Source: a virus (taxonomy: Duplodnaviria > Heunggongvirae > Uroviricota > Caudoviricetes). Taken from it: a stretch of 49,353 nt of DNA. The stretch spans positions 1 to 49,353 of the IMG/VR virus record IMGVR_UViG_2627854282_000001; one strand, written 5' to 3'. Each line of letters begins with the position of its first letter. Within the stretch, counting starts at the first letter, position 1. Below, piece after piece: positions 3,824 through 21,172 of the stretch. The position numbers were made by a program, and so were the translations under genes. A model generated the notes under the pieces. That model saw only the letters and a program-made list of their open reading frames with translations, ran no database searches and was not told where the DNA came from.

Positions 3824-3858
3824 GCAAGTTCTCCATAAGTTGAGGTTGAGAATGGGTT

Positions 3859-3910: not shown

Positions 3911-3959
3911 TGGGGGCACGGGGAAATAGTTGCGGCTACAGGGGTAGAGGGGCGCTGCG

Positions 3960-5462
3960 ATGCTTCGCGTCTTGCGGAATTTCTGGAACGATCAGCGCGG
4001 TGTCGCGATGATCCTGGTGGCGATCATGCTGCCGGTGCTGGTCGGCTTCGCGCTGTTGGCGGTCGATATGAGCCGGGCAAATGGGCTCCATGCCGATCTA
4101 CAAAAGGGCGTCGATGCGCTCGCGCTTGCCGGAGCCGCGGAACTCGACGGCAGATCCGACAGCATCACCAGGGCCGATAGGGCGATCAACAATCTCGTCG
4201 CCAACCATACGCTCTTTTCGACCGTCGGCGACCACCAAATTGCCCGAGCCGACATTACGGTGGCGTACTTGACCGGCATCCCCGCCAGCGACAACACAGG
4301 GCTTGGCGCCAACGGCGTCGATGCCAACGGCGTCAATTGGGCGAGCGTGGACCCAACCGCCGTGAGCCTTGTCGTGGTAACCTTGAACGCCTCGAGCGGT
4401 GGCACCTTCGAAAGCTTCTTCCCGGTGAGTTTCACCAGCGGCAACGCCAGTTTCGACATCCGTCCGCAGGCGGTGGCCGGCTTCAGGCAGTCGATCTGCG
4501 AGACCGTCCCGATCTACATGTGCAATCCGTTCGAGACGACGACGCCGGGAACCAGCAAGACGATCCAGCAGGCCTTTGCCTCTGGCGACACCTACGGCCG
4601 CGAGTTCCGCATCCTGAAGGTGGATTCGAATCCTGGCCCAGGCAATTTCGGCCTGATCGACAACAACCTGACGTCGCTACGCGATGCCATCGCGATCGGC
4701 ACCGCAGGCACCTGCTACGGTCGAGATTCGCTCACCACGAAGACCGGCGTTACCCTTGGCCAGGTGAACACCGGACTGAACACCCGCTTTGACCTCTACA
4801 GCGGCTCCCTCAACAAGGATAACAAGGATTGGAACTACCGGCCCGCGAGCAACGTCCGCAAGGGTCAGAAGACGGGCTGCAGCAAATATGATCCGGTGAC
4901 CGATGGGACGGCGCTACCACTGCCGCCCGGGAGCAATTACAACGACTCCAAGGGCATGTCCGACCCGATCACATCGCAAAGCTTCTGGAGCACCTATTGG
5001 TCGGTCAATCATGGGACGACCTATCCTAATGTCCCGAGCGCCAGCAATCCAACCGGCTCCAGAACCGCTCCAGCATCGCGATATGATGTGTATAGATACG
5101 AGATCGCGAACGGCCTCGTCGGAGATAAATCGAAGGCGCCGACAAAGGAAACTGGCAATCCGTCCTGCTTCAAGGGCGATACCCCCACGGCCAGCCCTGA
5201 CCGCCGCTTGCTCAACATGGCGATCGTCGACTGCATCGCCAATCAGTCGAAGATCAATGGCCATATCGCTATCAAGCCCGATGGGTACGCTAGCGTGTTC
5301 GTCAATACGCCGGTTCAGAAGCAGGACAATACCAAGGATCCCGAAGACCCCACGGCAGGCGAGAAGCCAATCAGCCTGGAAATCGTGGATGTCGATGGTG
5401 CTTTCGCCGACAACTTTACTGTCGATAAAGCTTTCCGAAACGAGGCGCAGCTATACCGATGA
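3960..5462 (+). CDS. TadG-like Tad/Flp pilus assembly or tip protein (500 aa)
   Basis: Prepilin-like leader NFWNDQRG|VAMILVAIMLPVLVGFALLAVD, LQKGVDALALAGA Tad-domain signature, Cys-rich C-terminal domain; opposite strand to the phage genes. Confidence 0.88.
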   Translation: MLRVLRNFWNDQRGVAMILVAIMLPVLVGFALLAVDMSRANGLHADLQKGVDALALAGAAELDGRSDSITRADRAINNLVANHTLFSTVGDHQIARADITVAYLTGIPASDNTGLGANGVDANGVNWASVDPTAVSLVVVTLNASSGGTFESFFPVSFTSGNASFDIRPQAVAGFRQSICETVPIYMCNPFETTTPGTSKTIQQAFASGDTYGREFRILKVDSNPGPGNFGLIDNNLTSLRDAIAIGTAGTCYGRDSLTTKTGVTLGQVNTGLNTRFDLYSGSLNKDNKDWNYRPASNVRKGQKTGCSKYDPVTDGTALPLPPGSNYNDSKGMSDPITSQSFWSTYWSVNHGTTYPNVPSASNPTGSRTAPASRYDVYRYEIANGLVGDKSKAPTKETGNPSCFKGDTPTASPDRRLLNMAIVDCIANQSKINGHIAIKPDGYASVFVNTPVQKQDNTKDPEDPTAGEKPISLEIVDVDGAFADNFTVDKAFRNEAQLYR

Positions 5463-5764
5463 GAGCATGCCTGACAATCGCCATGCTATTCCTTTTCGCC
5501 TTTCCAGCTGTCGCCGACGAAATGTCGCTGGTGAACTGCAATATCCTCAGCAACTCGGCGGCCAGCGGCGCGCTGAAACTTCGCCAGGCGATCGGCGAGG
5601 TGAAGGGCGAGGCCCTTCATGAGATGATTCCCGCCCTACCGGAAAGCGCCAAGGACGAGGCAAAGGACGTCGAGGACGCGAGGATTGGCATGGAATCAGC
5701 GATGCGCGAATACATGATCTCGCTCGATGCCTTCTCGAAAGCTGTGAAGGACTGCGGGAACTAA
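5459..5764 (+). CDS. Secreted helical protein coupled to tadG-like gene (101 aa)
   Basis: ATGA overlap with upstream stop; signal peptide ending AVA; two Cys. Confidence 0.75.
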   Translation: MRACLTIAMLFLFAFPAVADEMSLVNCNILSNSAASGALKLRQAIGEVKGEALHEMIPALPESAKDEAKDVEDARIGMESAMREYMISLDAFSKAVKDCGN

Positions 5765-7029
5765 GACCAGACAGTCGAGAGATCCTGCAAGGCTGAATCT
5801 GCCATCGGCGCCCAGACGTGGATGAAGCGGATAGAGCCACCGTTTGTTGTGGTGTCGCCAGGAAGTCCGCCGAAAGCAGCCGCCTCAGCAGTCGCTGTAA
5901 GACTGGTCCCAACCGTCACCAGAGGATCGCCGTTCACCGACATCGAAAGACGCCCGTCAGCGCGCGTCAACGCGATCTGATGAAGATTGGCAAAATGGTG
6001 GTAGCGAGGGTCGGTGACGGTACGGCTGGCCGGCGTCGAGTTGAAATCGCTCGCCTGCATGTTGAGGTTATCGACCTGGGCAAGGCGCCTCAGCGTGATG
6101 CCCTGATCGAGTGCGTTGGTGGCGATCCCGAGGATCGTCGTGACATCGTCGTCGGTATCTTCCGAATAACCGATGAGGATGGTCCAATCCATCGAAGTCA
6201 GCGTGGCGAGGAAATCACCGATGATGCCGATCGGAAAATCGCCATACGGCATCTCCAATCCAAAGGCAGTCAGCGCCCCGGGCGTGTCGACGATATCGGC
6301 CAAAGTGACGGGGCTGCCGGCGACGGAATAGACCTCGTTGATGAAATCGGCCGAGGCAAGCATGCTGCCGGGCAGGCTGTAGGTCGGGCGCGGCGACAAT
6401 GTCGGAAGACTGGCTACGTCCTGAAGATCGAGACGTTCGATGGACCGGATATAGATACTGCGAGCGAGGAAGCTCGAGCCTGGTGCGGCACCGAGTGAGA
6501 GCGCGGTCGCGGTCAGCGCAAAGACATCGGCCGTCGTGCTCTGGGTTGGGTTACCATCGACCGACATCGAAAGCTCCCCATTCGAGCGGGACACCGCGAT
6601 CTTGTGAATGCCGGTGGGAAAGCCTGCGGTATCGGTGACCTGCCGGAAATGGATGCCAGCGGTGTCGCTGGCGTTCATGTAGCCGCTGGTCAACCGGTGA
6701 AGATTGTAGTTGCCGTCACCGGCGTCGGTGTAGACGAATGGGTAGCTGTTGCTGCTGTCGCTGCGTTCGTAATACTCAACGATCACGGTTTGATTGTCAC
6801 CGAGGAAAGCAGCCAAGGCATCGCCGATAACCGAGACGCATGGCGACTCCTCGGTATCGAGAATCTCGAGGCCAGCCGCGGTGACCCATCCGGGCTGATC
6901 AATGACATCGGCCACGGTGACGGAGACGCCGGCGACGGTATAGACGCCATTCTTGAAATCAAGCTTCGTTTGCCCCCCTGGCGCCGGGCTACCTCCGCCG
7001 AAGATGAACGGGTTGAGAAGCCCGGTCAT
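5761..7029 (-). CDS. Putative tail receptor-binding protein with two tandem ConA/LamG-like domains
   Basis: Internal duplication DFKNGVYTVAGVSVTVADVIDQPG / DFINEVYSVAGSPVTLADIVDTPG and HKIAVSRSNGELSMSVDG / HQIALTRADGRLSMSVNG; last gene of tail operon. Confidence 0.7.
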   Translation of the reverse strand: MTGLLNPFIFGGGSPAPGGQTKLDFKNGVYTVAGVSVTVADVIDQPGWVTAAGLEILDTEESPCVSVIGDALAAFLGDNQTVIVEYYERSDSSNSYPFVYTDAGDGNYNLHRLTSGYMNASDTAGIHFRQVTDTAGFPTGIHKIAVSRSNGELSMSVDGNPTQSTTADVFALTATALSLGAAPGSSFLARSIYIRSIERLDLQDVASLPTLSPRPTYSLPGSMLASADFINEVYSVAGSPVTLADIVDTPGALTAFGLEMPYGDFPIGIIGDFLATLTSMDWTILIGYSEDTDDDVTTILGIATNALDQGITLRRLAQVDNLNMQASDFNSTPASRTVTDPRYHHFANLHQIALTRADGRLSMSVNGDPLVTVGTSLTATAEAAAFGGLPGDTTTNGGSIRFIHVWAPMADSALQDLSTVWS

Positions 7030-7793
7030 GCCACACCGAGGAAGACGAGCTTCAGGCCAGCGGCGCCGGCCCCCGCATCATCGATATCGACCGAGACTTC
7101 GGCGTCGTCGGTCATTGCGGTGGTGCTGAGCACCGCTGGCACCGTGGCGGTCGTCGACGTCTTCTCAAGGGCATCGATCGTGAGCCGCGTCGAGAAGATC
7201 GAAACCCCGTTTTGATTGACGTCGACAGTGACGGTCCCACCAGAATCTGAGGCTTCATTGAGTGAAGCCCTGACGCTGGAGAGCGTGAAACCAGTCGGCC
7301 ACCTGAATCTTACTTTCGCGGTTCCGGCGGTGAGCTCGGTGGTCTCATCGCTCACCGCTACAGGATATTGGAATGGCATCGGCGGCGCCGATCCGCTTGC
7401 GCCGGCTGCGGTGCGAACGTTGGTGCCATCCGATTGGAAGCATCCCATATCGCCATTCGCGATTGTCGGTGGCGTCGCAGCCTGCCCAGAAATCCGAATG
7501 GTAACGGTCTGGCCGCACTGATTGAGCACCGTGAAGAGGCCGCGCTGCTCCGCCGGCACATTCAACGTGACCGGACCGCCCGGCGCCGGCGACCCAACAC
7601 CGATCCGGAGGTGCGAACCTTCCCAAAACTGATCCGAGGTGAGATTGACGCTCGTGCCGTCGATGGTGACGTCGACAAAGCCGAAAGCGGCGGACTCAAT
7701 CCGGTCATTGCGGTTGTTGATGGCTGGGATGCCATCAGTCACCTGTCCCTGGGCGACCGGAACCGCCTGGGGGATCTTTTTCTCGATTGTCAT
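7026..7793 (-). CDS. Tail fibre base/adaptor protein (DUF2793-like N-terminus)
   Basis: Position after tip protein; N-terminus AQGQ...INNRNDRIE resembles GTA-type fibre anchors; beta-rich C-terminal domain. Confidence 0.6.
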   Translation of the reverse strand: MTIEKKIPQAVPVAQGQVTDGIPAINNRNDRIESAAFGFVDVTIDGTSVNLTSDQFWEGSHLRIGVGSPAPGGPVTLNVPAEQRGLFTVLNQCGQTVTIRISGQAATPPTIANGDMGCFQSDGTNVRTAAGASGSAPPMPFQYPVAVSDETTELTAGTAKVRFRWPTGFTLSSVRASLNEASDSGGTVTVDVNQNGVSIFSTRLTIDALEKTSTTATVPAVLSTTAMTDDAEVSVDIDDAGAGAAGLKLVFLGVA

Positions 7794-7801
7794 GGATTAC
7801 C

Positions 7802-10800
7802 TCAGAGAGGGATCGTAACCTCAGCGACATGGCCGCGGCCGACCGTCGCCGACATCATGTAGACGCGCGCCTGCGCACTCGGCGGCGGCGAGCCCCAATC
7901 GGCCGACTTCTGCGCCGCCGTATAGGTGAATTGGTTGGTGCCAACGCTGATGGTCCGCAGCACGCCGGTCGGCGAGTCTGCGTCGAGCACGTCCATTTCG
8001 AACGCTAAGGTCGCCTCGCCGCAACTCGGTACCGCATTGAACATCTCCCATGCGGAGAGCCGGTTGCGATAATCGAAGTCGACGATGGTGTCGCCACCGG
8101 AGAGTTGGCCGCACAGATTGACGACCGCATACGGTCTTTCGGCAGCTCCGGCGATCTGGTGCGCCTCAGCAACCGCCGCAGCAATTGAACCGCCGAACCC
8201 GACCGCCTTGTAGTATTTGGTCAGATCGAGATCCGATGGCGGATGGGGCAGCTTTCTCACCCAGTCCTGTCTGACCAGGACGAACAGATCGCCGATTTGA
8301 TGCTGCGGGCCGTAGACCTCCGTGCCGCGCCAGCCGCGCACCGGGAAACCCGAGATCGTGAAGGTGCCGTCGCCATTGTCCACGACGGTCGTGAAGCCAA
8401 GCCCCTCCCAGCGCCCTTCCCTGCCGACGAAGGCGAGGTTGGTGCCGAGCATGACTGCGGACTCCGCGGCCGAGGTCGGCGCTGCCCCTGAAATCCTCTG
8501 GACGATGATGCTGCTTGAGAAGTCGCCAGAATGAGGGTTCGGGTTGTCCGGCAGCACCGTTTTGCAGATGCCGACGAAGGCGGTATGCGGAGCCTGATCG
8601 TACATCACGGCAAAGGTGCTTGCGGTGTCTCCTCGATAGAGAGTGCCGCCTCCCCAGTTCGGCTGGCCGCGGCCGGCAACCATGCCGTATTGGACCAGCG
8701 CGGCGCCGGCGGCGTCGTCACCAAGGCGCAAGAGCGGAATATCGAGATGGATGTATTGCGACTGCAGCGTGACCGAGGTGATGCCGGAGTAGCCAGTGTT
8801 CGATACAACCGCGACATCGGCCGCGAGTGACGTCTGGAAATCCCTGGCCTCGAAATCGATGACCAGGTTTTCCTTGATGTTCACCTTCGAGATCTCGACG
8901 GTGTAGTCGATGTTGCCCGAGGGGACGCTGATGACGTCCCCCGGAATGAGATGAGCGAAATCGGAGAACGTCGAGAAGCTGTGCGTGCGCTCTTTGGCCT
9001 GCTGCCGCAACAGCAGCTCCTGCACATACTGCTCGCCATCGGCATCGGAGAGCACCATAGACGTGGAAAAGTTCATTTCCTTCGTCGACCGGGTGACCTC
9101 ATATAGCGCGCTGTACTCGTCAGCCGTTACAGTTCTCGCCTGATAGTTGTTCTCCTTTGACACATACTCGAAGGTGACCTTGGCAACCCTCGTCAAATCG
9201 CTTTCATCGTCCGACCGGATGGAGCCATTGCTCTTGAAGACGATGTCGGTATCGGCAAGAGATTCATCGGCGACGAACGATCCGTCGGTGGGCGTCTTCC
9301 GGAAGACGATCTCGTCCCCTATGTCCGACCAGACGAACCCCAAGGGATCCTGATAGGTGCGCAGCACCGTGAGGATGCTGGTGTCCTTGTCGATAACGTC
9401 GCCCCAATCGAAGAGCGCGTTGAAGCCTTCGAAGCGGATTTGATCGACGGTGTAAGGGCCCAAATGGGTTAGAAGGTCGGTGACGTGGCTTTGAGTGGTG
9501 ATCTCGCCCGGCGTCGAGCCAGGAATCGTGTATTCAGTCCAAATCTTATTGGTGCTGCTGTACATGAAGTATGCCAGCCGCGCCTGATCGACGAAGACGA
9601 CGCCTGTGGCGTGCTCGTCAAGCTTCGTCGCAGTTTTCGCATTGATGTCAATCGACCAAATCTCTTGGTGATTGTGATCGAAAAGGGCGTAACCAGGGCG
9701 GGGGAACGCTCGCTCCGTCCACAGGGGTCCGGATATATAATCGAGCAGCAACGAGACCGTGAATGTCTCGACGATCGCTCCTGTGGTCGGTGTGATTAAC
9801 CGGACATTGTATGTGCCGGCCGGGAAGGTCTCGAGCACAACGAGGTATTCGGTGAGAGGATCATAATGCATCCCGGTGATCTGTCCGTCCGGGTCGAACA
9901 CCGTGGCCGTCGACCAGCCGTCGCCACCATAGGTGACCTCGTAGACCAGATTGCCGTCGTACATGAAGAAGGATGCGGAATCGGCGGCGACACGCCCGGC
10001 GACCATCGGGATTTCGCCGACTGAGACACTATTCCTCGTGACGCTGAATGAGCCGGCAGTCAGATCGATGACCGCGAAAGCGGTTGGATCGTAGGCAGTA
10101 TCGTAAATATCCGTGCCAGCGAGCAAGAACTGGTCGCCGAATTTGACGCTGGCGAACCAGACAAAGCGTTCATCAGAATTCTCGATGAACTCCGCTACGA
10201 TCGAACCGGTGGTCGCGTTGTAAACGCGGGTCGGAAGAACACCCGTCGGCGCGATATCCAGCCGGGCGAACACGACCACATATCCGGAACCGCGCAAGAC
10301 GGCCAAATAGGGATTCGCATCGACATAGATTTCCGACCCCTCGAGAGGCACTCGGTACTGCTCAACACCGGTGTCGACGTCGAGCGCAACAAGGTAGCAG
10401 ACCGTGAGCGAGGGGATCTCGGCATTCGTCAGGATCTGGTAGAGAATCCCGTCGACGGGGTCATAGCCCGCAAACCGGAACGTGTTCGTGCCAGGACTCG
10501 TCGGCGCCTGACCAACCCATGTCAGCTGCTTCGTTCCACCGGTCTGCGATGCTGCGTTGGAGATCACGGCGGTTATGGTCGGCGCCTGCGCCGCAGGGTA
10601 ATCAGGCAGCACCAGAAGCACGTCACCAGTGTGAGCTCCAGCATTAGCGCCGACGATCTGCTTGACCACCGGATCAACTGCCGTCTGCAGCCCGTTGTAG
10701 AAGCGAAATTGGATCGACGGGATAGCACCATTTTCAGCATCGAAGACGACCTGACCATCCGCCTCGATGCGAATGATGTCGTAGCCTCGGCCGAAATAAT

Positions 10801-11092
10801 CCTTGGCAAGGAGATAAACGACGTCGATTGTGGCAACGCTAGTCGGGTCCGGATAGGTCAGATTGAACTGCGAGCCGATGCGCGTGCCCTGGTAGGTCGT
10901 GGTGACGACCTTTGCCTGGCCGTAGACCGGGATGCCATCGACGCGGCCAGTACCGATGACTGCGGCCTTGGGTCGGCCCAAGGCAGGTGGCGTTACAAGG
11001 CCAGTGCGACGAGTGTAGACGCCGTCGATGCGCGGCGGATCCTTATACAGACTCAGTGTTGCTTTGTGGCCATCATAGATACCGTAGGCCAT
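7802..11092 (-). CDS. Tail tip / host-specificity protein (GTA megatron-like, phage-tail_3 type)
   Basis: 1096 aa after DUF2163; IPVYG N-terminal motif, C-terminal LDIPLLR, WGGGTLYRG, GWRGTE motifs; central beta-propeller-like insert. Confidence 0.8.
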   Translation of the reverse strand: MAYGIYDGHKATLSLYKDPPRIDGVYTRRTGLVTPPALGRPKAAVIGTGRVDGIPVYGQAKVVTTTYQGTRIGSQFNLTYPDPTSVATIDVVYLLAKDYFGRGYDIIRIEADGQVVFDAENGAIPSIQFRFYNGLQTAVDPVVKQIVGANAGAHTGDVLLVLPDYPAAQAPTITAVISNAASQTGGTKQLTWVGQAPTSPGTNTFRFAGYDPVDGILYQILTNAEIPSLTVCYLVALDVDTGVEQYRVPLEGSEIYVDANPYLAVLRGSGYVVVFARLDIAPTGVLPTRVYNATTGSIVAEFIENSDERFVWFASVKFGDQFLLAGTDIYDTAYDPTAFAVIDLTAGSFSVTRNSVSVGEIPMVAGRVAADSASFFMYDGNLVYEVTYGGDGWSTATVFDPDGQITGMHYDPLTEYLVVLETFPAGTYNVRLITPTTGAIVETFTVSLLLDYISGPLWTERAFPRPGYALFDHNHQEIWSIDINAKTATKLDEHATGVVFVDQARLAYFMYSSTNKIWTEYTIPGSTPGEITTQSHVTDLLTHLGPYTVDQIRFEGFNALFDWGDVIDKDTSILTVLRTYQDPLGFVWSDIGDEIVFRKTPTDGSFVADESLADTDIVFKSNGSIRSDDESDLTRVAKVTFEYVSKENNYQARTVTADEYSALYEVTRSTKEMNFSTSMVLSDADGEQYVQELLLRQQAKERTHSFSTFSDFAHLIPGDVISVPSGNIDYTVEISKVNIKENLVIDFEARDFQTSLAADVAVVSNTGYSGITSVTLQSQYIHLDIPLLRLGDDAAGAALVQYGMVAGRGQPNWGGGTLYRGDTASTFAVMYDQAPHTAFVGICKTVLPDNPNPHSGDFSSSIIVQRISGAAPTSAAESAVMLGTNLAFVGREGRWEGLGFTTVVDNGDGTFTISGFPVRGWRGTEVYGPQHQIGDLFVLVRQDWVRKLPHPPSDLDLTKYYKAVGFGGSIAAAVAEAHQIAGAAERPYAVVNLCGQLSGGDTIVDFDYRNRLSAWEMFNAVPSCGEATLAFEMDVLDADSPTGVLRTISVGTNQFTYTAAQKSADWGSPPPSAQARVYMMSATVGRGHVAEVTIPL

Positions 11093-11133
11093 TTACGAGC
11101 GTACCTCGTCAAACATCCGGGAGCCCTCGCACC

Positions 11134-11988: not shown

Positions 11989-11989
11989 T

Positions 11990-12589
11990 TCAGGCGTTGA
12001 TGTCTTCGGTGGCGGTCATGCCATTGATCTTGGCGTAGGCTCCGTTCGGGCCATCAATCGAGACATCCTGGGTGGAATTCTCAAGCCGGACCGCGACGTA
12101 GTATTTGCCGGTCCAGGTCAAGGTTTCTCCGACTGCCCATGGGGTTGTCGGCACGATGACGCCATTGGTCTTGCTGTTGATCGCCTTCACGACGCCGTTC
12201 GACTTGATGACGACGGCGCCGTCATCTTCGTCCAGGAATTTCACCGGATAGTCATACGGCCGAGCGCCGGCGAAGGTGATGACAAGTTGCTTTCCGTCGC
12301 TGGTCCCATCTCCGAAGCCGAACACCTGATCGACCACGGAAAAGTGCCGCCAGTCGCGGATCAGCACCGGATACCCGCAGCCGCGGCATTCCTCGATCTT
12401 TTCCACGATGTTGCGCATGTCGGCGACTAGCGTGTTGGTATAGCCGAACTGGTAGCGTCGGAGCGGCCGGGTCCGGCGAACGATCGAGCGCACTCCCCCA
12501 CCATTCATCATGATAGACTCGGAGGCGAAATCCGGCGTTCCGGAAATGAAGCCGAGTGCTGTCGATTTGGGGAAAATCGGGTACGTCAT
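11990..12589 (-). CDS. Distal tail protein, DUF2460 family
   Basis: G.P.F.S..IM..GG, IRDWRHF, FGFGDGT and VAVRL motifs; directly after TMP. Confidence 0.85.
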   Translation of the reverse strand: MTYPIFPKSTALGFISGTPDFASESIMMNGGGVRSIVRRTRPLRRYQFGYTNTLVADMRNIVEKIEECRGCGYPVLIRDWRHFSVVDQVFGFGDGTSDGKQLVITFAGARPYDYPVKFLDEDDGAVVIKSNGVVKAINSKTNGVIVPTTPWAVGETLTWTGKYYVAVRLENSTQDVSIDGPNGAYAKINGMTATEDINA

Positions 12590-15500
12590 GCGACAGAACT
12601 GCTCATTGCGCCATAGACGGTCCGAACGAACTCATACGCGGCCTGGCGGCCAGCTTGGGCGCCATCAGTGACGCCGTTGATGTTGATGTCTCCGACCACG
12701 ATGTTCCCGATGGTGGCCTGCCCAGGAGCTGGCTGCGGCCCCAGCTTGATCGTCGGCCGTTTGAGGACGCCGATGCCCCAGCTGGATATGTAACTGCCGT
12801 GCTGAGGATCCCATGCGTCGCCGAACATGTGCGATTCTTTGGAAATGTTGCCGGTGTTCAGACCGCCATCCGGGCGCCACGCGTATGGATCGTTGCCGTT
12901 CTGACCCATTGCGGAAGTACCCTGCCAAAGGTCGTACATCCCGACGTCCAGCGCGCCGATAGTGCCCGCGACGTTCGCGAGACCGCCGGTGACACTTCGA
13001 TTCATGTCGTCGACGCTAGTGCCGACATCCTTGGTCGCTGACGTCGTCTGGTCCTGTCCGTATCGGGTGACGTTGACGCCGTTTTCCAGCTGCCGGACGA
13101 CCGCGCCGGTCCCATTGTCACCGCCGCCGGCGCCGCTGCTGAAACGGGTCACCGACACGCCGCCGGCATCAGGATAGGTGGTGCGCGTTCCGGTCGCCCC
13201 GGCTCTCTGCACAACCGGGTTGGCCTGGAAGGTGTTAATCGCCCCAGTCAGCCTGGCGATCCAGAAAAGAGCGTCCTCGATTCCTTTGATGAAGCCGTCG
13301 AGCGCATCTGAATTCGCGCCGAGCTTCTTCAGTTCGTCGCGAATCTTGGCGATACCGTCGGCGAGCTTGTAGGCGGGCAAGCGTCCAGCGAGGAATTTGT
13401 CGACCAGAGCCTGCAGGCGCGCTTCGATGGCGCCGTACTCCTGATTTAGCCCACCGATCTCCAGCGCTTGACCGAACATGCGCTCGCGGCCGGTCGCAAA
13501 GGCTGTGGCGAGATCGGTCTGCGCAAGCTTGAGGCGGATAGTGGTCGCTTCAACATCGGCCTGCCGCTGCCGGATCTCGTCATAGGCGCTGGCGACATTC
13601 GCGAACTTGGATTGGACAAGGTCCTTGCTTTCCGCGTTTTCCAGCGCTGTGGAGACGTGTTCGAGAATGTCGAGTTCACGCGTCGAGGCGGCAATCGCAT
13701 CAGCGCCGGCCCTCACCCTCTGGCGAACCGCATCGGTGATCCTGATGTTCTGGCCGGCGATCTTGGCGAGAAGATCGTCCTCGATCGCGAGGCGATTCTG
13801 CTCATCGCCAATGAGACCGCGCCGCTCCAGTATCTCCTTGTTGGCCTTTACCTGACCCTGGATAAGGTCGTTGATCGCCGCCAGCTGCGAGGCGGTTGCC
13901 TCCGGCTTGTCGAAGTTGATGTTTGGCGCAATCTGCTTCGCAGTCGCCAGCAGCCGGGCAAACTCGCCGCTGGTTGCCTCCGTGGACCGGAGCCACGCCT
14001 CCGATTTGCTATTGATGGTATCCAGCACGGTGTTGACGATGGCGACGTCCCTGGCCTCGCCCTCGAGAAGATCCTTGTTGTCCTTCATCACGGCGGCGGT
14101 GCCCTGCCGGATCTTCGACTCGAGATCGGTCTGCTCGTTGATCTGCTTAATGCTGAAAAGCAGCCCCTGCGCGGTCTTCTGCGACTGCTTCAGGTTTGTC
14201 TCATAGATTTCCAGGGCGTCGGCCGATGCGGCGGCCACCTTGTTGATCTGGTTCTCGACGTCGAGACTGCCGACGCCGCTCTTCAGCGAGGCGTTGAGCT
14301 GTTCCGCGGAGGCCGCCGACTTGTTGAGCGCGAGCTGGAGCTTGCCCTCTTCCGCGACGGCCGCGGCGATATTATCGAGTTCATGGTCGCTGACGAACTG
14401 GGCTTCCGGGATTGCCCGGATTTCCTTGTTGATGTCGGCAAACGCAAGAGTGCCCTCCGCGACCCTGTTGACGACCGACTGCACGCCGGCGGTCATCTTG
14501 TTGAACAGATCGACGAAATCGCTGCGGTTTTCGAGCTTCGGATTGGTGAACGCATCGAAAGCGTTCGTCAGGGCTTCATTGATCTTTGTGGCCTGCTCCT
14601 CGACCCCTGCCCTGAAAAGGGTAATATCGCCTTCGGTGGCGGCGAGCTTACCCTTGATCTCTTCCGACCTAAGGCTGGTTTCCGCAGCCTGCCCAGTTTG
14701 GCCACCGGCATCCGCGATCGACCCAAGTACATCGTGCAGCGCCTTCCTGGTATTCTCCTGCTGCTGCGCCGCCTCAGCCGATCTGATGCCCATGAGGGTA
14801 AGCAGCGAAATCGCACCAGTGAACGCGACACCCCATGGGCCGCCGAGGAAGCCAACCAGGCTGCTGGCGCCGGTCTTCAAAAGACCGAACGATTGCCGCA
14901 GCACGCTGGTGTTCTTTGTGGCGAGAGAAAGTGAGGTCGCTGTGGTCTCCAGGCTGGTGCGAAGACCGTCGAGCTCTGCCTGCGCGGCGCGCAGCTCGGC
15001 GCCTTTCGCAAGCGAGCCGACTTCCCCGATCGCCGCGCGGGCACGCCCCAGCCTTTGCGTCTGGTCGAACTCCTCGACCTGAAGACGGGCGGTCTCCTTC
15101 GCTTGCGCTCTGGCGACCTGCTGGTACTTCGACCGGGTTTCGGCGGCTTGCGCCTCGGCGGCGCCAACCCGTTCCGCAAGCGCGATTCGCTGGTTGCCGA
15201 GCTGCTCCTCGAGCGCGCCCTGCTTCAACGCTTCACTGGACTGCTGCTGCCGGATGCGAGTGATGTCGCGTTCCGCCTCCTTCACAGCGCCGATGTTGCC
15301 GATGTTGATCGCCTGCTGCCCAGATGCCGCGGTCAGCCGGGTCTGCGCCTTGGCGAGCTCGTTCGCGAGCGATACCTGCCGGCTTTGGCTGGCCTCGATC
15401 TTGCCCTGGGTCTCGACGATCTTGTCGGCCGCGGCCAGGGTCTGCTTGGTCCCCTTCACCTCGACCGAGTTGGCGGCGTCGATCGCGTTGCGCAGCTTCT

Positions 15501-16749
15501 CGGTTGTCGCCAGCCGGCTTTCCCGAATCTTGTTGAGCTTCGCCTCTTCGCGCTGGACGATCTTGAGGTCCGACTTTGACGCGAATTCCAAGTTGTCCCG
15601 CCCCTGCAGATTGGCGAACGCCCTGGTGCTCTGCTCAAGCTGAGATGAAAGATCGCCTTGCGCCTTCGTAAGCTTTTCGACCTGGTCCTTGGCATCGGCA
15701 GACCGTCTCGAGATTTCGCCGAAGGTGGCGTCGACGGCCTTGCCGACGCTGCTGCCGACGAGCCGGCCAGCAAAAGCCGAACCAAGGGCCAGGCCTAAGG
15801 TGGCGGCGCTGCCGGCAACCTTGTCGATATTGTTGGCGAACAGCAGGATGCCGCCGGAAACGATCCGGGTGAGACCATACGTCTTGTCGAGACCTCCGAC
15901 GAATTTCGTGAGCTGGTTGTCGGCCTTGACAAGGGATTGGTCGATGGTGAGAACCGACTTGTTGAAATCGGCATCGACACTGGCCTTGATCTTGTCGAGA
16001 GCGCCGAGGACTCTATCCGCGGTCAGCTGGCCGGTGATGCTGAGCTGCCGCAGCTTGCCGATGGTGACGTCGAGGCCCTTCGCGAGCTGCAGACCAAGCG
16101 GGGTTTCCAGCACGGCGCGGAATTCGTCGCCGCCCAGCCGATTCGAAGCGATCGCCTGCGAGAACTGGATGGCGGCCGATGTGGCTTCCTGAGCCGTGGC
16201 GCCGCCCAGAGCAAGCGCTTTCTGGATGGTCTGGACGTACTCGAGCACGGTGCTGCCCGATGTCGATGGCGCCGCCTTCTGCAAGCGAGAGTACAGCACA
16301 GCGGTCGAGGTAAGGGAGGCACGGCTGTTGTCGGCAGCCGCGGCAACGCCGGCAAGATTCCCAGCAAGGTCGGCGGCATCATCGGAGACGACGCGGATCT
16401 GGTTTGAGAGATTGTTGTAGGTGTCCGCGTACCGGAGCACCAAGTTCGACGACAGCGCCGCGGTCAGGCCGCCGAAAACGGCCGTCGTCGCCAGCATGGT
16501 GCCGCGCAGCAGGCCGACGCGGTCGTTGACGCGCTCGAAGGCGCGCGAAACAGCGATCAGACCATACGGCCTGATGCCGCTATCCGCGCTCCTGGAGAAT
16601 CGCTCGATCGAGGACTGCGCAAGACCAGCTTCCTTGCGCACGCTGGCGGCGCCGCGCGCCGTGATGCGGTCAGCAAGAGCCCAGCCGGCGGCATAGCCGC
16701 CGGTGTCCATCGTCAACGATGCATAGATGGAACCGATTGGCTCAGCCAT
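12586..16749 (-). CDS. Tape measure protein (1387 aa)
   Basis: Tape-measure domain (ADTYNNLSNQIR...AAIQFSQAIASNRLGGDEFRAVLE), long Ala-rich helical repeats. Confidence 0.95.
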   Translation of the reverse strand: MAEPIGSIYASLTMDTGGYAAGWALADRITARGAASVRKEAGLAQSSIERFSRSADSGIRPYGLIAVSRAFERVNDRVGLLRGTMLATTAVFGGLTAALSSNLVLRYADTYNNLSNQIRVVSDDAADLAGNLAGVAAAADNSRASLTSTAVLYSRLQKAAPSTSGSTVLEYVQTIQKALALGGATAQEATSAAIQFSQAIASNRLGGDEFRAVLETPLGLQLAKGLDVTIGKLRQLSITGQLTADRVLGALDKIKASVDADFNKSVLTIDQSLVKADNQLTKFVGGLDKTYGLTRIVSGGILLFANNIDKVAGSAATLGLALGSAFAGRLVGSSVGKAVDATFGEISRRSADAKDQVEKLTKAQGDLSSQLEQSTRAFANLQGRDNLEFASKSDLKIVQREEAKLNKIRESRLATTEKLRNAIDAANSVEVKGTKQTLAAADKIVETQGKIEASQSRQVSLANELAKAQTRLTAASGQQAINIGNIGAVKEAERDITRIRQQQSSEALKQGALEEQLGNQRIALAERVGAAEAQAAETRSKYQQVARAQAKETARLQVEEFDQTQRLGRARAAIGEVGSLAKGAELRAAQAELDGLRTSLETTATSLSLATKNTSVLRQSFGLLKTGASSLVGFLGGPWGVAFTGAISLLTLMGIRSAEAAQQQENTRKALHDVLGSIADAGGQTGQAAETSLRSEEIKGKLAATEGDITLFRAGVEEQATKINEALTNAFDAFTNPKLENRSDFVDLFNKMTAGVQSVVNRVAEGTLAFADINKEIRAIPEAQFVSDHELDNIAAAVAEEGKLQLALNKSAASAEQLNASLKSGVGSLDVENQINKVAAASADALEIYETNLKQSQKTAQGLLFSIKQINEQTDLESKIRQGTAAVMKDNKDLLEGEARDVAIVNTVLDTINSKSEAWLRSTEATSGEFARLLATAKQIAPNINFDKPEATASQLAAINDLIQGQVKANKEILERRGLIGDEQNRLAIEDDLLAKIAGQNIRITDAVRQRVRAGADAIAASTRELDILEHVSTALENAESKDLVQSKFANVASAYDEIRQRQADVEATTIRLKLAQTDLATAFATGRERMFGQALEIGGLNQEYGAIEARLQALVDKFLAGRLPAYKLADGIAKIRDELKKLGANSDALDGFIKGIEDALFWIARLTGAINTFQANPVVQRAGATGTRTTYPDAGGVSVTRFSSGAGGGDNGTGAVVRQLENGVNVTRYGQDQTTSATKDVGTSVDDMNRSVTGGLANVAGTIGALDVGMYDLWQGTSAMGQNGNDPYAWRPDGGLNTGNISKESHMFGDAWDPQHGSYISSWGIGVLKRPTIKLGPQPAPGQATIGNIVVGDININGVTDGAQAGRQAAYEFVRTVYGAMSSSVA

Positions 16750-17014
16750 TTTTGCCTATGCGTTTCTGATCGGAGGCTGCTTTGCGAAGCTGCTTTTTCT
16801 GCTGCTCCATGAAGAGCCGCATGCGCCGGTACATCTGGTCCGGCGTTTGCAGTCGCTGCGGATCGTCCCAAAGCTCCGACGACTTGTCGGGCAATCGCCT
16901 GGCCCGCTGCAGGCGCGCGTTGAAGTAGGCTTGCTCGACACGACCTTGCCAGGCAGGGCCGAGCCAGGTGCCGACTTCATGCGGGGTCAGTTCGAAGAAT
17001 TGATGCGGGAACAT
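16742..17014 (-). CDS. Tail assembly chaperone C-terminal (T) segment of the G-T frameshift product
   Basis: PHQFFELTPHEV motif; open in the -1 frame from the slippery site at 17077. Confidence 0.85.
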   Translation of the reverse strand: MFPHQFFELTPHEVGTWLGPAWQGRVEQAYFNARLQRARRLPDKSSELWDDPQRLQTPDQMYRRMRLFMEQQKKQLRKAASDQKRIGKNG

Positions 17015-17046
17015 GCCCGCCCGGTAGGCACTCTTTTGCAGTTCAG

Positions 17047-17436
17047 TTAGGAGCTCGCCGGGCTCGATTGGTTTCCCGAGTCATCATTCACCTCGAGCTT
17101 CCTGACGTTCTCGAGATAGTCGAGATGACCCTCAAAGGTGCGGCCATGCATTGCCAAGAACAGCGCATCCAGGATCGCGTTTGCAGTGACGACCTGCGGG
17201 CAGTCGAGATCATCGTATGCGATGCGAAACGGCTTGCCGTCCTTCTTGCCGCCGAAGGCGATGCATTCGCGCATGAACTTCGGGTCAAAGCGGTTCAGGC
17301 GCGGCACGCAGTCGGCGAAATAGTTGTCGCCGAATTTCGCCTGAAGATTGTCGAGATCGGGATTGGTGAAGCGGAGATAGACCCCCTCCCCGCCGTCCGG
17401 GAAGGGGACTTGTCCGCGGAGACGCACTTCTGACAA
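17047..17436 (-). CDS. Tail assembly chaperone (gpG-like)
   Basis: Between tube and TMP genes; ends with in-frame G GGA AAC slippery heptamer. Confidence 0.88.
   Translation of the reverse strand: MSEVRLRGQVPFPDGGEGVYLRFTNPDLDNLQAKFGDNYFADCVPRLNRFDPKFMRECIAFGGKKDGKPFRIAYDDLDCPQVVTANAILDALFLAMHGRTFEGHLDYLENVRKLEVNDDSGNQSSPASS
17071..17077 (-). other. Programmed -1 frameshift site GGGAAAC
   Basis: X XXY YYZ in correct phase (TCG GGA AAC); -1 frame reads GKPIEPGELLTELQKSAYRAGMFPHQ without a stop into the 16742-17014 ORF. Confidence 0.9.
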
Positions 17437-17448
17437 CGACGCCTCCTA

Positions 17449-17898
17449 TTAAGCCGACGGGCCTTCTTCGATCTGACCCGACACGCGGATCGTCACTTCG
17501 AAATTGATCGGATCCTCACCGGTGAAGGTGAAATCTCCGCCGGAGACGTAGCCGAAGCCGTACAGCATGTAATTGAAGCCGGCGCCGCTCATGTCGATCT
17601 GCCAGTTGAAGGTGGCGCCGGAGTTGAGCTTCGCCTCGAGGCCGGTCGTACCGTTGAGCGTGGCGTCGCTTGGGTTGTAGTGGCAGGTGATCTTGATCTC
17701 GCCCGGATCCTTGAAGCCCGGCCGGAACTCGCGGAAGCCGCCGGTCGAAGCGAGATGGGTGAAGTCGACCTCTTCGACCGAGCGGCCGGAAAGGTTGATG
17801 GCGGTGACGTTCACGACGGGCGTGAACGCTTCCGGCGATTCGCCGTCTCCGACCTTGAACTTGGTGCCAAGGCCGACTTTACCAGTGGACGCAACCAT
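17449..17898 (-). CDS. Major tail tube protein
   Basis: SVEEVDFTHLASTGGFREFRPGFKDPGEI motif typical of siphovirus tubes. Confidence 0.92.
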   Translation of the reverse strand: MVASTGKVGLGTKFKVGDGESPEAFTPVVNVTAINLSGRSVEEVDFTHLASTGGFREFRPGFKDPGEIKITCHYNPSDATLNGTTGLEAKLNSGATFNWQIDMSGAGFNYMLYGFGYVSGGDFTFTGEDPINFEVTIRVSGQIEEGPSA

Positions 17899-17911
17899 GG
17901 TGCGGGTTCTC

Positions 17912-18169
17912 CTATTTCAGTTTGGGTTTGCGACAGGCTTTCCGGGCCGCCGCGGCGTCCTCGGAGACGAGCGTATCCACCCCGCACTCCCGGCATTTCC
18001 AGCACGGCAGTCCGCTCCACTTGGTCTCGATCATCGAGCACTCGCGGGGGGCAGAAACGACTGAGGCCGCCTCGGGGGCGGCCTCAGATTTTGCGATTTC
18101 AGTTGCTGGCGACGACACGTCAGCTCGCACCGGACTCCTCGTCCGGCGCGCAGGGCGCCTTGCGGGCAT
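17912..18169 (-). CDS. Small basic protein with CWKCREC motif (85 aa)
   Basis: Strong SD AAGGAGG; fills the gap before the tube gene. Confidence 0.7.
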   Translation of the reverse strand: MPARRPARRTRSPVRADVSSPATEIAKSEAAPEAASVVSAPRECSMIETKWSGLPCWKCRECGVDTLVSEDAAAARKACRKPKLK

Positions 18170-18187
18170 GGCTGCCTCCTTACGCGC

Positions 18188-18685
18188 CTATCGACGGCGC
18201 ACGATGCTGTTGGTCAGTCGCAACCAGGCGCGGCGCCGCAGCGTGGCGATGACCTCGCCATGCTTGGAATCGAAGGCTGGCCGGAAGAATGGATGGGCGC
18301 GAGAGCCCGGATGGAAGAATCCGCCGCGAAAATTCTTCTGAAAGTGCGGTGCGGTCCCGAACTCGAGCAGGTGGACGATGGTTCTGGCGCGCCTCTTGAA
18401 CGACACCCACCAGGTGCGACGTTTCGCTGTGCCCGAGACCTTCACCGACACCACGTTTTCATCGACATGGCCGCCCGGCGGTGAGCCGCTTGGCTGCGGG
18501 AAGAAGTCTGGATATTTGCCAGCGAAGTTGCGCAGTGCGGCCGCATTGCGCTCGGTCTCGCGCCGCATCGGCTCCAACGCGGCTTCCATATCCTCGTCCA
18601 TGGCGCGGCCGTCATAGATGCCGGCGGCACGGCGCATGTTGGCGCGCAGCTGCACGTCGCCGGTCAGCTTAAAGCCCTTAGCCAT
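18188..18685 (-). CDS. HK97 gp10-like tail completion protein
   Basis: Start MAKGF at 18685; HLLEFGT and HPFFRPAFD motifs. Confidence 0.88.
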   Translation of the reverse strand: MAKGFKLTGDVQLRANMRRAAGIYDGRAMDEDMEAALEPMRRETERNAAALRNFAGKYPDFFPQPSGSPPGGHVDENVVSVKVSGTAKRRTWWVSFKRRARTIVHLLEFGTAPHFQKNFRGGFFHPGSRAHPFFRPAFDSKHGEVIATLRRRAWLRLTNSIVRRR

Positions 18686-18686
18686 G

Positions 18687-19091
18687 TCAGGCTGCCTTTT
18701 TCCAGCGGATGAAGAAGTCCACCGTCCAGACATAGACGGAGCGATCGTCCGCCTTTGCGGTCCGCTCGAAATTTGCAAAGGAGGTGGAGATGTCGACGAA
18801 ACCGCCGATCGCGAGGTTCTTGTTGTCCTGGAGCGCACCCATGACGGCGTTGCGAAGCTGTTCGGCACCGAGGGCGGTTTCCGCCAGGCAATTGACGGTC
18901 ACGCGGTTCCGATAATATTGTCCGGCGCCGTCGAGCATTGACTCGTCGAAGCCGCTGACGATGTTCACCTCGACGCAGGGCAACTGCGCGCGTTGCGGAA
19001 GGTCGATTGGATAGATGCCTTCCGAGCTGACGATGTCTGTGACGGCCGCCTCGCTGCCGAGCCGGGCGATCGCAATGGTGAGCGCCGACAT
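18687..19091 (-). CDS. Tail terminator (DUF3168-like)
   Basis: IYPIDLPQ...LPCV, R.TVNCLA, final VDFFIRW pattern. Confidence 0.8.
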   Translation of the reverse strand: MSALTIAIARLGSEAAVTDIVSSEGIYPIDLPQRAQLPCVEVNIVSGFDESMLDGAGQYYRNRVTVNCLAETALGAEQLRNAVMGALQDNKNLAIGGFVDISTSFANFERTAKADDRSVYVWTVDFFIRWKKAA

Positions 19092-19438
19092 CAGGCGTTC
19101 CGGATCAGCGTCGGCTTGATGGTGACGGCACCGGTGACCACAGTAGCGACCGATCCGGCAAAGCTGACGCCTTCGGCTTCGTGGTAGTAGACCCCTCCCT
19201 TGAAGCCGTCAGTGTCGGCAGCGCTAATCGTGACCTCGAACTCACCATTGCTTGGGTCTGTCAGCTGGATGCCCGATCCTGTCGCTTTCGAGACCAGGGG
19301 CGAGCTCTTGACATTCTTCGCGAGCCGCCATCGAAACGTCCAGCCGGTGATGTCGACCAAGGCGTTGTTTTCGTCTCGCACGATGACGAGAACGATCTTT
19401 GTATCGCCGGCATACATCTCGAAATCGGTAACCGCCAT
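19091..19438 (-). CDS. BppU-N-like virion adaptor protein
   Basis: GDT.IV.V..RDEN...VDITG, I..TDPSNGEFEVTISAADT, YYHEAE pattern. Confidence 0.65.
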   Translation of the reverse strand: MAVTDFEMYAGDTKIVLVIVRDENNALVDITGWTFRWRLAKNVKSSPLVSKATGSGIQLTDPSNGEFEVTISAADTDGFKGGVYYHEAEGVSFAGSVATVVTGAVTIKPTLIRNA

Positions 19439-19439
19439 G

Positions 19440-19961
19440 TCATTGGATCCTTCTCACGACGCGCCCGTCGAGATGGATGCGAGAAGTGGCAGACCCGGTC
19501 AGCTCGATCGTGCCGGCGAGCAGACCGTCCAGGACGATCCTGGCCAGCGTCTCGATTTCGATACCTGCAGCTTCATCATCCAGGAGCAGCAGCAAAGCAT
19601 CTGCGACGGCGAACGCTGCCCGGATAGCAGCGGAGCCGGCGATCGCCGGCTCAAGACTGTCGGAGGCACGCACTGTTGCCGCTACAGTGGCGGTCGAATC
19701 TAGACGAAATGGCAATGCGTCCTGGCAGTGCAGCCGCCCCAGCAATTCGTCGATGGCGTCGTCTCCAAGAACAGAAAGGATATCCGCCCGTCCTAGCAGC
19801 GCCGAGACGGCCGACGTCTCCGATAAAAGCGCGTCGACGTCATCCGAAAGAGCAAGTGTTGACCGGGCATCCCTGTTCTCAGCGAACGCCATTTCCAGGC
19901 TGTCTGACGCAGATACGTCGACTTGCGTCGGGCCTCCTGCAAATAGAAGTAGAAGGCTCAT
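19440..19961 (-). CDS. Putative fibre protein with short D/A/L repeats
   Basis: MSLLLLFAGG start, quasi-periodic ASDSL/LSDDV/RADIL/VADAL units; coupled to neighbours. Confidence 0.6.
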   Translation of the reverse strand: MSLLLLFAGGPTQVDVSASDSLEMAFAENRDARSTLALSDDVDALLSETSAVSALLGRADILSVLGDDAIDELLGRLHCQDALPFRLDSTATVAATVRASDSLEPAIAGSAAIRAAFAVADALLLLLDDEAAGIEIETLARIVLDGLLAGTIELTGSATSRIHLDGRVVRRIQ

Positions 19962-20347
19962 TACGAACCGATGTTGACTGTGATGTCGATGGTGATGAGC
20001 CAGCTCTGCGCTGAGGTCTTCGTGCCCAGCGACTCAACCTTGCGGCTCAACATCACTCCAGCCGTCGGGTCGTTGAAGATCCCCCATTCTTCCCAAGCGA
20101 AGTTGCCGTCTGATGTGCCGTAGAGAGATTGGAAGGTCAGAACGTTGTTCGCTCGCTGTGGATAGCCTGACTCCATGCCCATTCGCAGCTTGTTTGATGC
20201 CGCCTGGAGATCGGTTTGACCGACATCAAAGGCGGTGGAGGAGTCCCCTGCGCCAATGAAGGTGCCAGCCTCATCGAAGAAGGCCGGTGGGCCGTCGTTC
20301 ATAATTGCGGCAGCGATGAAGTTGCGGCCTGCATTGGTCATCGGCAT
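19961..20347 (-). CDS. Conserved phage structural protein (fibre/collar-base-like)
   Basis: GDSSTAF...QTDLQ, GNFAWEEWGIFN, MLSRKV motifs. Confidence 0.7.
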   Translation of the reverse strand: MPMTNAGRNFIAAAIMNDGPPAFFDEAGTFIGAGDSSTAFDVGQTDLQAASNKLRMGMESGYPQRANNVLTFQSLYGTSDGNFAWEEWGIFNDPTAGVMLSRKVESLGTKTSAQSWLITIDITVNIGS

Positions 20348-20360
20348 AGCGGTATCCCCT

Positions 20361-20579
20361 TTAAAGCGTATCGACGCCTTCGATCACCTCGACGGGCCGC
20401 TTGTTGGTCGCGAACTCACCATCGAATTTCTGGAGCCGCCAAGCGATACCGACAGAAATATTCAACCCCTCGCGCCGGCCATCATCAGCCTCTGCGAGGC
20501 GGGCCCGTATTTCGGCCGCCTTTTGCGGGTCCGACAATTCGATCAGCGCCGCAATCCGTTCAAGATCAGTGCGGTCCAT
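20361..20579 (-). CDS. Hypothetical protein (72 aa)
   Basis: SD GAGTAGAAG before ATG; co-oriented with the structural operon. Confidence 0.55.
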   Translation of the reverse strand: MDRTDLERIAALIELSDPQKAAEIRARLAEADDGRREGLNISVGIAWRLQKFDGEFATNKRPVEVIEGVDTL

Positions 20580-20750
20580 CTTCTACTCTCGAAAGGATGG
20601 AGTTTATACTCCGATATATTGTGGACGACGGGCGACAGACCCTTTATCCGGTCCAGCCTCAGCCTGTTGGCGATACGGTTAACCGGCCGGATTTCAGCGA
20701 AGATTCAGCAACTTATCGGCGCGCAACTATCGGCTCCGAGTAGATCGCGG

Positions 20751-20802
20751 TTAATGAATTGCTAATTTTCCTTTGACTCCAAGAGCCTGGCAGGAACAGG
20801 AT
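20751..20802 (+). promoter_or_regulatory. CtrA-like box plus -35 element of flp pilin moron
   Basis: TTAA-tgaattg-CTAA (20751-20765), -35 TTGACT (20773-20778), weak -10 CAGGAT (20797-20802); extra TTAACC half-site at 20679. Confidence 0.65.
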
Positions 20803-20871
20803 CGCTTTCGGGACCAGGGGGATGAGCTCGAAAGCACCTCTGTCCGGGTATTGGGTAACAGGGGAATTCAA

Positions 20872-21084
20872 ATGAAGAAGCTTCTCAACATCGCGAAGTC
20901 GTTCCGTGACGAAGAGTCCGGCGCTGCCATGGTCGAATATTCGATCCTCATCGGCATCATCACTGCCGCCGTCATCACCATGATTGTTGCCGTCGGCATT
21001 TACGTTACCGGCGCATGGACCAAGCTCTGCTCAAATCTGCAGGCTCACGAATCGACCGTTGGCGTCACGATGAGCTGCGGCTGA
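20872..21084 (+). CDS. flp: Flp/Fap (type IVc) pilin, 70 aa
   Basis: Start MKKLL at 20872 with SD GGGGA; class III signal RDEESG|AAMVEYSILIGII followed by a hydrophobic helix. Confidence 0.95.
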   Translation: MKKLLNIAKSFRDEESGAAMVEYSILIGIITAAVITMIVAVGIYVTGAWTKLCSNLQAHESTVGVTMSCG

Positions 21085-21172
21085 TGACAGTTCGCGCGCC
21101 CTGAACCAGCGCGCATGCGATAGATGGTTTGGGATGACTTGGAGGTTACCCCTGGCCAGACTATCGGCGGGA

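Follow-up and report, generated by a model that had tools for sequence, protein, structure and literature searches.

A provirus assigned to Mesorhizobium carries, among its late genes, two genes for subunits of a Tad pilus, and the question raised by this locus is what a phage would gain from keeping them. The DNA analyzed (the window, 49,353 nt) covers the opening 49 kb of an IMG/VR provirus (IMGVR_UViG_2627854282_000001; 113 kb in total), whose assignment to Mesorhizobium rests on its homologues. The minus strand is occupied by a siphovirus-type late operon, which is broken by two units on the + strand, the one of a Flp pilin gene (flp, 20872-21084) and the one of a gene for a TadG-like large minor pilin (tadG, 3960-5462). 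This antisense placement had been pointed out in an earlier note on the same DNA, in which the pair was taken for a split kit that remodels the shaft and the tip of the host pilus. The two genes are best read as two independent lysogenic-conversion morons, that is, as phage-kept alleles of exposed subunits of one resident Mesorhizobium Tad pilus.

No gene for a prepilin peptidase, a secretin, an ATPase, TadB/C, RcpC, TadE or TadZ was found by tblastn in the whole 113-kb provirus. The lack of a Tad machine, noticed before for the window, thus holds for the entire record, and the dependence of both proteins on the machine of the host is accepted together with their status as prophage morons. The possibility that the window is host DNA with a tad locus was rejected, as the remainder of the record carries genes of replication (DnaB, beta clamp, SNF2, methylase, HNH) and not tad genes.

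The two genes and the host tad locus

The flp gene is preceded by a Shine-Dalgarno sequence and encodes a protein of 70 aa. Its N-terminus, MKKLLNIAKSFRDEESG/AAMVEYSILIGII, has the prepilin motif G/XXXXEY in the form G/AAMVEY. The processing site, ESG/AAMVEYSILIGIITAAVITMIVAVG, is followed by a hydrophobic helix, and 14 host and 11 phage copies share exactly this motif. With only 19.1 bits against the Pfam family Flp_Fap (PF04964), the protein stays under the gathering score of 32.2. Scores just as low (19-27 bits) are obtained for the flp genes of the host tad locus, whereas the canonical Flp proteins of other tad loci reach 65-72 bits. The low score is therefore a sign of a divergent subfamily rather than of non-membership, and on its sequence the Flp of the window is assigned to that subfamily of the host tad locus and not to canonical Flp. 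The identification as a Flp pilin is borne out by the motif and by an identity of 53-69% to Mesorhizobium flp genes located directly upstream of rcpC and the secretin gene, at the head of the tad locus.

Across the known copies, the first ~45 residues of Flp are common, with a nearly invariant leader, processing site and helix, and variation is concentrated in a C-terminal tail that forms a loop with two conserved Cys. Strain CA8 has a prophage Flp and a resident Flp with the same mature core; the differences between them lie in the leader and the C-terminal tail. The gene also has its own terminator, as previously proposed. A consensus terminator scan gave no hairpin for flp; RNA folding revealed one at 21169-21204 (16-bp stem, 4-nt loop, with A and U runs at its flanks; z = -3.5 for a 131-nt stretch), located between flp and the convergent fibre-like gene.

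The second gene encodes a protein of 500 aa with a conserved, pilin-like N-terminal part of ~200 aa and a type-variable C-terminal part of ~300 aa. Residues 14-60 match the Pfam family Tad (PF13400) with 32.6 bits at the protein level and 37.2 bits at the DNA level (cut-off 22.3). The protein is 86-88% identical to the tadG product encoded between the secretin gene and two TadE-family genes in some Mesorhizobium tad loci. A basic leader, Gly14 and a 48-residue helix give it a pilin-like N-terminus. In the sequence DQRG/VAMILV, position +5 is nevertheless occupied by Leu and not by Glu, so that the canonical prepilin-peptidase site G/XXXXE is missing, while the neighbouring TadE proteins of the host do have it (G/AILVE and G/AAMVE). 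Of the earlier description as a TadG-like protein with a prepilin-type leader, the full-length TadG-like nature and the pilin-like N-terminus stand, and the processing site does not.

The AlphaFold2 model of TadG (pLDDT 78) has a helix at residues 12-59, and its top AFDB clusters are TadG-like N-terminal-domain proteins, with E-values down to 9e-21. Pfam gave no match for a vWA (von Willebrand factor A) domain in TadG, and Foldseek found no match for the model in the PDB at E <= 0.001. KilN4 also has a domain without PDB homologues (PMC12075869), which indicates that a vWA domain is not universal in the TadG family.

Both genes have their counterparts in the chromosomal tad locus of Mesorhizobium. 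On one side, this locus holds tadV (Peptidase_A24), tadD (TPR), tadC, tadB, tadA and a PAP2 gene. On the divergent side, one to three flp genes are followed by rcpC, the secretin gene, an ORF of ~100 aa, tadG (~500 aa), two TadE-family genes, tadZ and a gene for a YkuD protein. The host strains that best match the Flp and the TadG of the window are the same (G004 and G005), and the sequences of the two genes indicate that both descend from one complete host tad locus type. A PAP2-family gene and two tandem flp genes were also seen at 8777-10174 of another viral record (L041, IMGVR_UViG_3300038393_001965, 64 kb, CheckV completeness 100%). This PAP2-flp-flp order matches the head of the host tad locus and is thus a direct trace of capture from it.

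Of 201 Mesorhizobium species genomes surveyed, 137 have a tadG gene, with 37-88% identity to the TadG of the window. Within the host locus, tadG can be only 44-45% identical in strains whose rcpC, secretin, tadE2 and tadZ remain at 86-98% to the reference locus. When TadG types are compared segment by segment, the first ~200 residues are 70-86% identical and the remainder 24-45%. In other strains, tadE1 and tadE2 change along with tadG (37-51%) while tadZ stays at 88-98%, which indicates that the tip genes vary as a cassette. A deeply divergent tadG, alone or together with both tadE genes, occurs in L042-L044, L049-L051, L055, L057, L059, L061 and L062, with rcpC, secretin and tadZ at 75-98%; this swappable tip-gene cassette recalls the minor-pilin/PilY1 allele groups of Pseudomonas. 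That flp and tadG represent the surface-exposed parts of the pilus is accepted, and the variability falls where they are exposed, in the C-terminal ~300 aa of TadG and in the Cys loop of Flp.

The consensus of CtrA is TTAA-N7-TTAA, and it was searched for over the whole 49-kb window with up to one mismatch. The sole two matches, both on the + strand and both of the form TTAA-N7-CTAA, are TTAACCAACTGCTAA at 3859-3873, 101 nt before the start of tadG, and TTAATGAATTGCTAA at 20751-20765, 121 nt before the start of flp. A total of two matches is no more than expected by chance; the probability that two random sites fall in those two 150-nt upstream stretches is of the order of 1e-5. The position of the box recurs in other loci. 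Host flp genes have a perfect TTAA-N7-TTAA at about -133 (13/13 loci), phage flp genes have a box at -106 to -130 (12/13 loci), and the phage tadG genes adjoining fibre genes have one at -101/-102 (4/5 loci, among them L003, L012 and L022/L023). No box was found before any host tadG, which is internal to its operon. The record with two tandem flp genes mentioned above is the sole phage flp locus in which a scan of 300 nt revealed no CtrA-like box.

When the three classes of promoter are aligned, the TTAA and TAA half-sites are invariant around a variable N7 spacer. The box is followed, at constant spacing, by a TTGAC/TTGCC block and a TAGGAT/TATGCT block; a simple scan called no sigma-70-like promoter near tadG. 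The flp and tadG genes of the window each stand behind their own flp-type promoter, in a layout common to host flp and the other phage copies. In alphaproteobacterial phages, one of them from Mesorhizobium, sites for CtrA were shown both to be bound by it and to drive expression (PMC9437464). The common host locus and the common flp-type promoter with its CtrA-like box constitute a real functional link between flp and tadG.

Both genes are under strong purifying selection. For TadG, the synonymous divergence (dS) is ~1 and the ratio of nonsynonymous to synonymous divergence (dN/dS) is 0.05-0.10 over the full length, in phage-phage as well as phage-host pairs, with 0.06-0.10 for the TadG of the window; the C-terminal domain alone gives 0.04-0.07. 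The values are 0.2-0.4 for Flp against other phage copies and 0.12 for the 101-aa protein encoded behind tadG (see below). A dS of ~1 with a low dN/dS indicates old, maintained genes and not recent debris.

Copies in other phages and possible roles in the lysogen

Copies of tadG outside a tad locus turned up in no fewer than 11 surveyed genomes as well as 3 IMG/VR records. They adjoin Laminin_G_3 fibre genes in M. loti DSM 2626, M. argentiipisi and two metagenomic phages. One is located in a lysis region (L048), two have other phage-related neighbours (L053, L058) and one stands beside an integrase gene (L065). The surroundings of four further extra copies are unclassified (L045, L054, L060, L063), and genome G065 has a partial second match only. 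In the window, tadG is convergent with a Laminin_G_3/ConA-like tail-fibre candidate (5761-7029, minus strand; PF13385, E = 7.7e-6), and homologues of this candidate or other Laminin_G_3 proteins flank phage tadG in L012/L021, L022/L023 and L027. The phage copies of tadG form at least three groups in the tree, nested among host alleles. In nine of ten genomes, the C-terminal domain of the extra TadG is only 31-56% identical to that of the resident allele.

The usual companion of phage tadG is a secreted protein of 101 aa, and not Flp. In the window, its gene (5459-5764, + strand) overlaps the stop of tadG by 4 nt, in translational coupling with it, and encodes a Sec signal peptide (MRACLTIAMLFLFAFPAVA/DE) and two Cys. 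Behind phage tadG, homologues were found in L003/L027, L011, L022/L023 and L048. The protein accompanies tadG, in conserved form, in five phage contexts or more, and none was found in host tad loci. The protein has no Pfam or PHROG family. The ~100-aa ORF located upstream of tadG in the host locus was considered as its counterpart and rejected, the two being unrelated. The 101-aa protein might act as a chaperone or an inhibitor, or be one more component of the tip.

The Flp subfamily occurs in 13 IMG/VR records and in one prophage of strain CA8, almost always between the lysozyme gene and the distal tail genes. In five records, flp stands directly beside homologues of the two fibre-like genes of the window (21444-23363 and 23363-24595, minus strand). 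A 70-aa + strand ORF of L027 (19763-19975), inspected as a possible Flp, is not one. Among 50,697 GenBank phage records, no tblastn match was found for TadG or Flp, and megablast of positions 3000-24000 gave no match against the same phages. The earlier statement that no described Tad equivalent was known agrees with our search, as neither PHROGs, nor the GenBank phage records, nor the literature searched contained a description of a phage-borne Flp or TadG.

With moderate confidence, we propose that the phage Flp and TadG are made alongside the host pilus genes, enter the resident pilus and alter the surface that it exposes, and that the main benefit is phage exclusion. The parts needed for machine entry are kept: the G/AAMVEYSILIGII site of Flp is identical to that of host Flp, and the N-terminal ~200 aa of TadG are 70-86% identical across types. 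The exposed parts, the Cys loop of Flp and the C-terminal domain of TadG, differ. In the lysogen, CtrA, or whatever drives host flp, would activate the phage flp and tadG in step with the pilus genes of the host. The phage Flp would be processed by the host TadV peptidase and would then co-polymerize into the shaft, while the phage TadG and its resident counterpart would vie for the TadE/TadF tip-initiation complex. The resulting pili would have a different tip, a mixed shaft, or both, and would keep their function. Phages that adsorb to the pilus, possibly the prophage's own kin, would bind less well, as with the prophage FimU (P-FimU) on type IVa pili. The resistance to pilus-tropic phages put forward in the earlier note is in this sense a plausible outcome.

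Several observations weigh against this proposal. The route of TadG into the fibre is uncertain because Glu at +5 is absent. Since there is one tip per pilus, the protection given by phage TadG could be only partial unless the resident allele is out-competed. In genome G068, the extra tadG copies are ~90% identical to the resident allele. The excess of copies different from the resident one is itself weak (~39% of random host pairs are of the same type, P ~0.05) and only suggestive, because the sample of host alleles is biased. No co-variation was seen between the identity of Flp and that of the neighbouring fibre, and the fibre/lysis interval is the usual moron slot, so that the linkage to fibre genes may mean nothing. 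As to G068 itself, its three tadG copies (L053, L054, L055), one in the tad locus and two elsewhere, are ~90% alike, and this is the sole case of a match with the resident allele.

A broader and more tentative proposal is that temperate phages of Mesorhizobium carry mobile cassettes made of a fibre and a pilus subunit. The fibre would read one type of Tad tip or shaft, and the moron would re-dress the pilus of the lysogen with another type under CtrA control. Phage-phage competition would then drive the deep allelic types that tadG (and tadE/tadF and flp) show in host tad loci, and phages would also move alleles between strains.

A conversion of adhesion or colonization, in which a new tip or shaft surface changes attachment to roots, soil particles or other cells, the host and through it the prophage gain, and phage exclusion plays no role, seems rather unlikely to us. 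The full-length C-terminal domain of TadG is conserved within each type (dN/dS 0.04-0.07) and the allele is unlike the resident one in nine of ten genomes, as would suit an adhesive tip. Alternative TadE/F/G-type tips do shift the target range of one Myxococcus Tad machine (PMC12075869), and, according to work cited in the same source, Bradyrhizobium TadGEF is tied to adhesion and to soybean root infectivity. However, the genes recur specifically in phages, beside genes of the receptor-binding type, and the hypervariability fits phage pressure equally well.

The obligate two-part kit, a co-adapted shaft-tip pair of Flp and TadG that must act jointly, is improbable. One host locus as the source of both genes, with G004 and G005 as best matches of both, and a common promoter architecture would suit such a pair; their distribution does not. 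Among 16 related viral records, 3 have tadG only, 13 have flp only and none has both, although six of them are 93-100% complete. The genomic prophages repeat this picture, with three carrying tadG without flp and one carrying flp without tadG. The provirus studied here is thus the only one of 21 elements with both genes. The co-occurrence that the earlier note proposed to check in related prophages has turned out to be an independent distribution (0/16 viral records and 0/4 prophages with both), an outcome that the note itself had named as a refutation, and its split kit is not upheld: each of the 20 other elements has one gene alone, and the recurrent partner of tadG is the 101-aa protein.

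The closest relative, a 108-kb provirus (G017), shows how the two genes came together. There, the homologue of 24606-25229 is followed, after 9 nt, by that of 18687-19091, and flp and the fibre-like genes are located by the lysozyme gene and not between the head and tail genes. In the window, another fibre gene, accompanied by tadG and the 101-aa gene, fills the distal slot. From this comparison of layouts, flp and tadG are independent cassettes that happen to combine, one of them being an insertion relative to the closest relative, and the provirus has both genes because it holds two fibre-plus-moron cassettes.

Equally improbable is a shut-off of the pilus by poisoning, in which the phage subunits obstruct the fibre or the complex that initiates it, Tad pili are lost and pilus-dependent phages are excluded. 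Tip, Aqs1 and Zip exclude pilus-dependent phages by shutting off type IVa pili. The conserved N-terminal module would suffice for machine entry, TadG is without the Glu at +5 of processed pilins, and truncated phage PilA copies have been proposed to act in this manner (PMC12952977). A poison would nevertheless need no intact, type-specific C-terminal domain of 300 aa, yet this domain is the most constrained one (dN/dS 0.04-0.07). Every invariant Cys and motif position of the host alleles is kept, and the phage Flp is a complete pilin.

Passenger DNA, that is, host fragments from imprecise recombination without a role in the lysogen, with phages merely shuttling tad alleles, is very improbable: the phage copies are polyphyletic and nested among host alleles and their conserved N-terminal part offers homology for allele replacement, but a dS of ~1 with a dN/dS < 0.1 between phage copies speaks for long maintenance under selection, phage tadG has gained its own conserved promoter with a box that host tadG does not have, and the arrangement recurs in unrelated phage backbones.

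Setting within the provirus

The late operon on the minus strand contains genes for TerL (31495-33429), a portal, an S78 protease and an HK97-type capsid protein, followed by the connector/head-completion gene (24606-25229), the tail tube gene (17449-17898), the tape measure gene (12586-16749) and DUF2460, Gp84-like and Rcc01698-like hub genes. A 5.5-kb block (19091-24595) is inserted between the head-completion and tail-completion genes. It consists of four small ORFs (72-173 aa), flp and the two fibre-like genes, which travel with phage flp. These encode a protein of 639 aa, rich in S/T/G and with internal repeats, and one of 410 aa; the Atlas clusters closest to them, at the level of a weak match, consist of viral Laminin_G_3 proteins. 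TadG, Flp, the 101-aa partner and the fibre-like proteins are all without a family in PHROGs.

Divergent from tadG, an endolysin gene (3053-3919, minus strand) encodes a GH24 phage lysozyme (PF00959, 107 bits) with a membrane N-terminus. The membrane-spanning part preceding the GH24 domain corresponds to DUF7940 and has a weak MFS-like match. An in-frame ATG at 3823 would leave an intergenic promoter region of 136 nt before tadG; it is the more likely start, as this promoter region would be common to the endolysin gene and tadG.

Two other regions of the minus strand deserve mention. Positions 35430-41001, by the terminase genes, hold matches to SDR, FAD oxidoreductase, SAM methyltransferase and glycosyltransferase families and may represent a second, glycan-based surface-conversion module of the same provirus. 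At the edge of the window, an ORF (1-891) matches PHROG 114 (ATP-dependent DNA ligase), and its homologues are found near the lysis/moron region in several related proviruses.

Relation to known systems

The nearest parallels are found in type IVa pili. P-FimU, of F10-like Pseudomonas aeruginosa prophages, replaces the host FimU at the pilus tip and blocks tip-binding phages while pilus function is kept (PMC12952977), and Xylella prophages carry PilA genes, P-PilA (Sztanko et al., Cell Rep 2026, PMC12952977). As in our provirus, a prophage homologue of a structural subunit of the host pilus, diverse in sequence, needs the host machine. The pilus itself is different, being type IVa there and Tad (type IVc) here, with the unrelated families Flp and TadG. 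P-FimU is a small core minor pilin, whereas the phage TadG is a large tip backbone. In addition, both shaft and tip genes are found here in one provirus, behind a host flp-type promoter with a CtrA-like box.

The tip complexes of TadE/F/G are built on TadG-type proteins as their backbone, and a single Tad machine can be primed by alternative tips (PMC12075869). In Caulobacter, loss of CpaL, an orphan TadG orthologue, lowers the sensitivity to phiCbK (PMC12607857). The phage TadG shares with CpaL and with KilL/M/N, the adaptable tips of Myxococcus, the features of a large TadG-type minor pilin, namely a pilin-like N-terminus and a modular C-terminal domain, and in these examples a single machine can be served by alternative or orphan copies whose genes lie apart from those of the machine. 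The copies there are paralogues on the chromosome, while the genes described here are phage genes. CpaL has a vWA domain, whereas neither a vWA nor a PDB match was found for the phage TadG. The KilN-type sets are complete L/M/N trios, whereas the phage brings TadG alone, with an unrelated secreted 101-aa protein.

If the proposal is confirmed, superinfection exclusion by replacement of the receptor subunit would extend beyond type IVa pili to Tad pili, an evolutionarily separate kind that is important for the attachment of rhizobia and many pathogens. The interchangeable tip domains of TadG and surface loops of Flp, a set provided by nature, would offer a probe of what a Tad tip binds. The finding also points to a reason why variation of tadG, tadE and tadF takes the form of a cassette within otherwise conserved tad loci. 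The common CtrA-type promoter provides a handle for tests, as the prophage genes would be timed by the host cell cycle and not by the phage repressor.

Receptor-blocking morons located by receptor-binding genes include T5 Llp, next to pb5, and Cor of phi80/N15. They too are small conversion genes on the opposite strand by fibre or receptor-binding protein genes, and they are thought to guard the lysogen or the progeny from adsorption to their own receptor. Llp and Cor are lipoproteins that block an outer-membrane receptor, whereas here the receptor structure itself would be supplied in variant form by the phage. Mascolo et al. 2022 (PMC9437464) described phage genes, among them those of a Mesorhizobium phage, that TTAA-N7-TTAA sites connect to the cell-cycle regulator of the host. 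There, the sites form clusters within the terminal repeats of phiCbK-like phages, which are virulent; they precede genes without a known function, and a role in lysis timing was proposed for them. In the provirus described here, in contrast, single boxes precede prophage genes for pilus subunits, in an arrangement that mirrors the host flp promoter.

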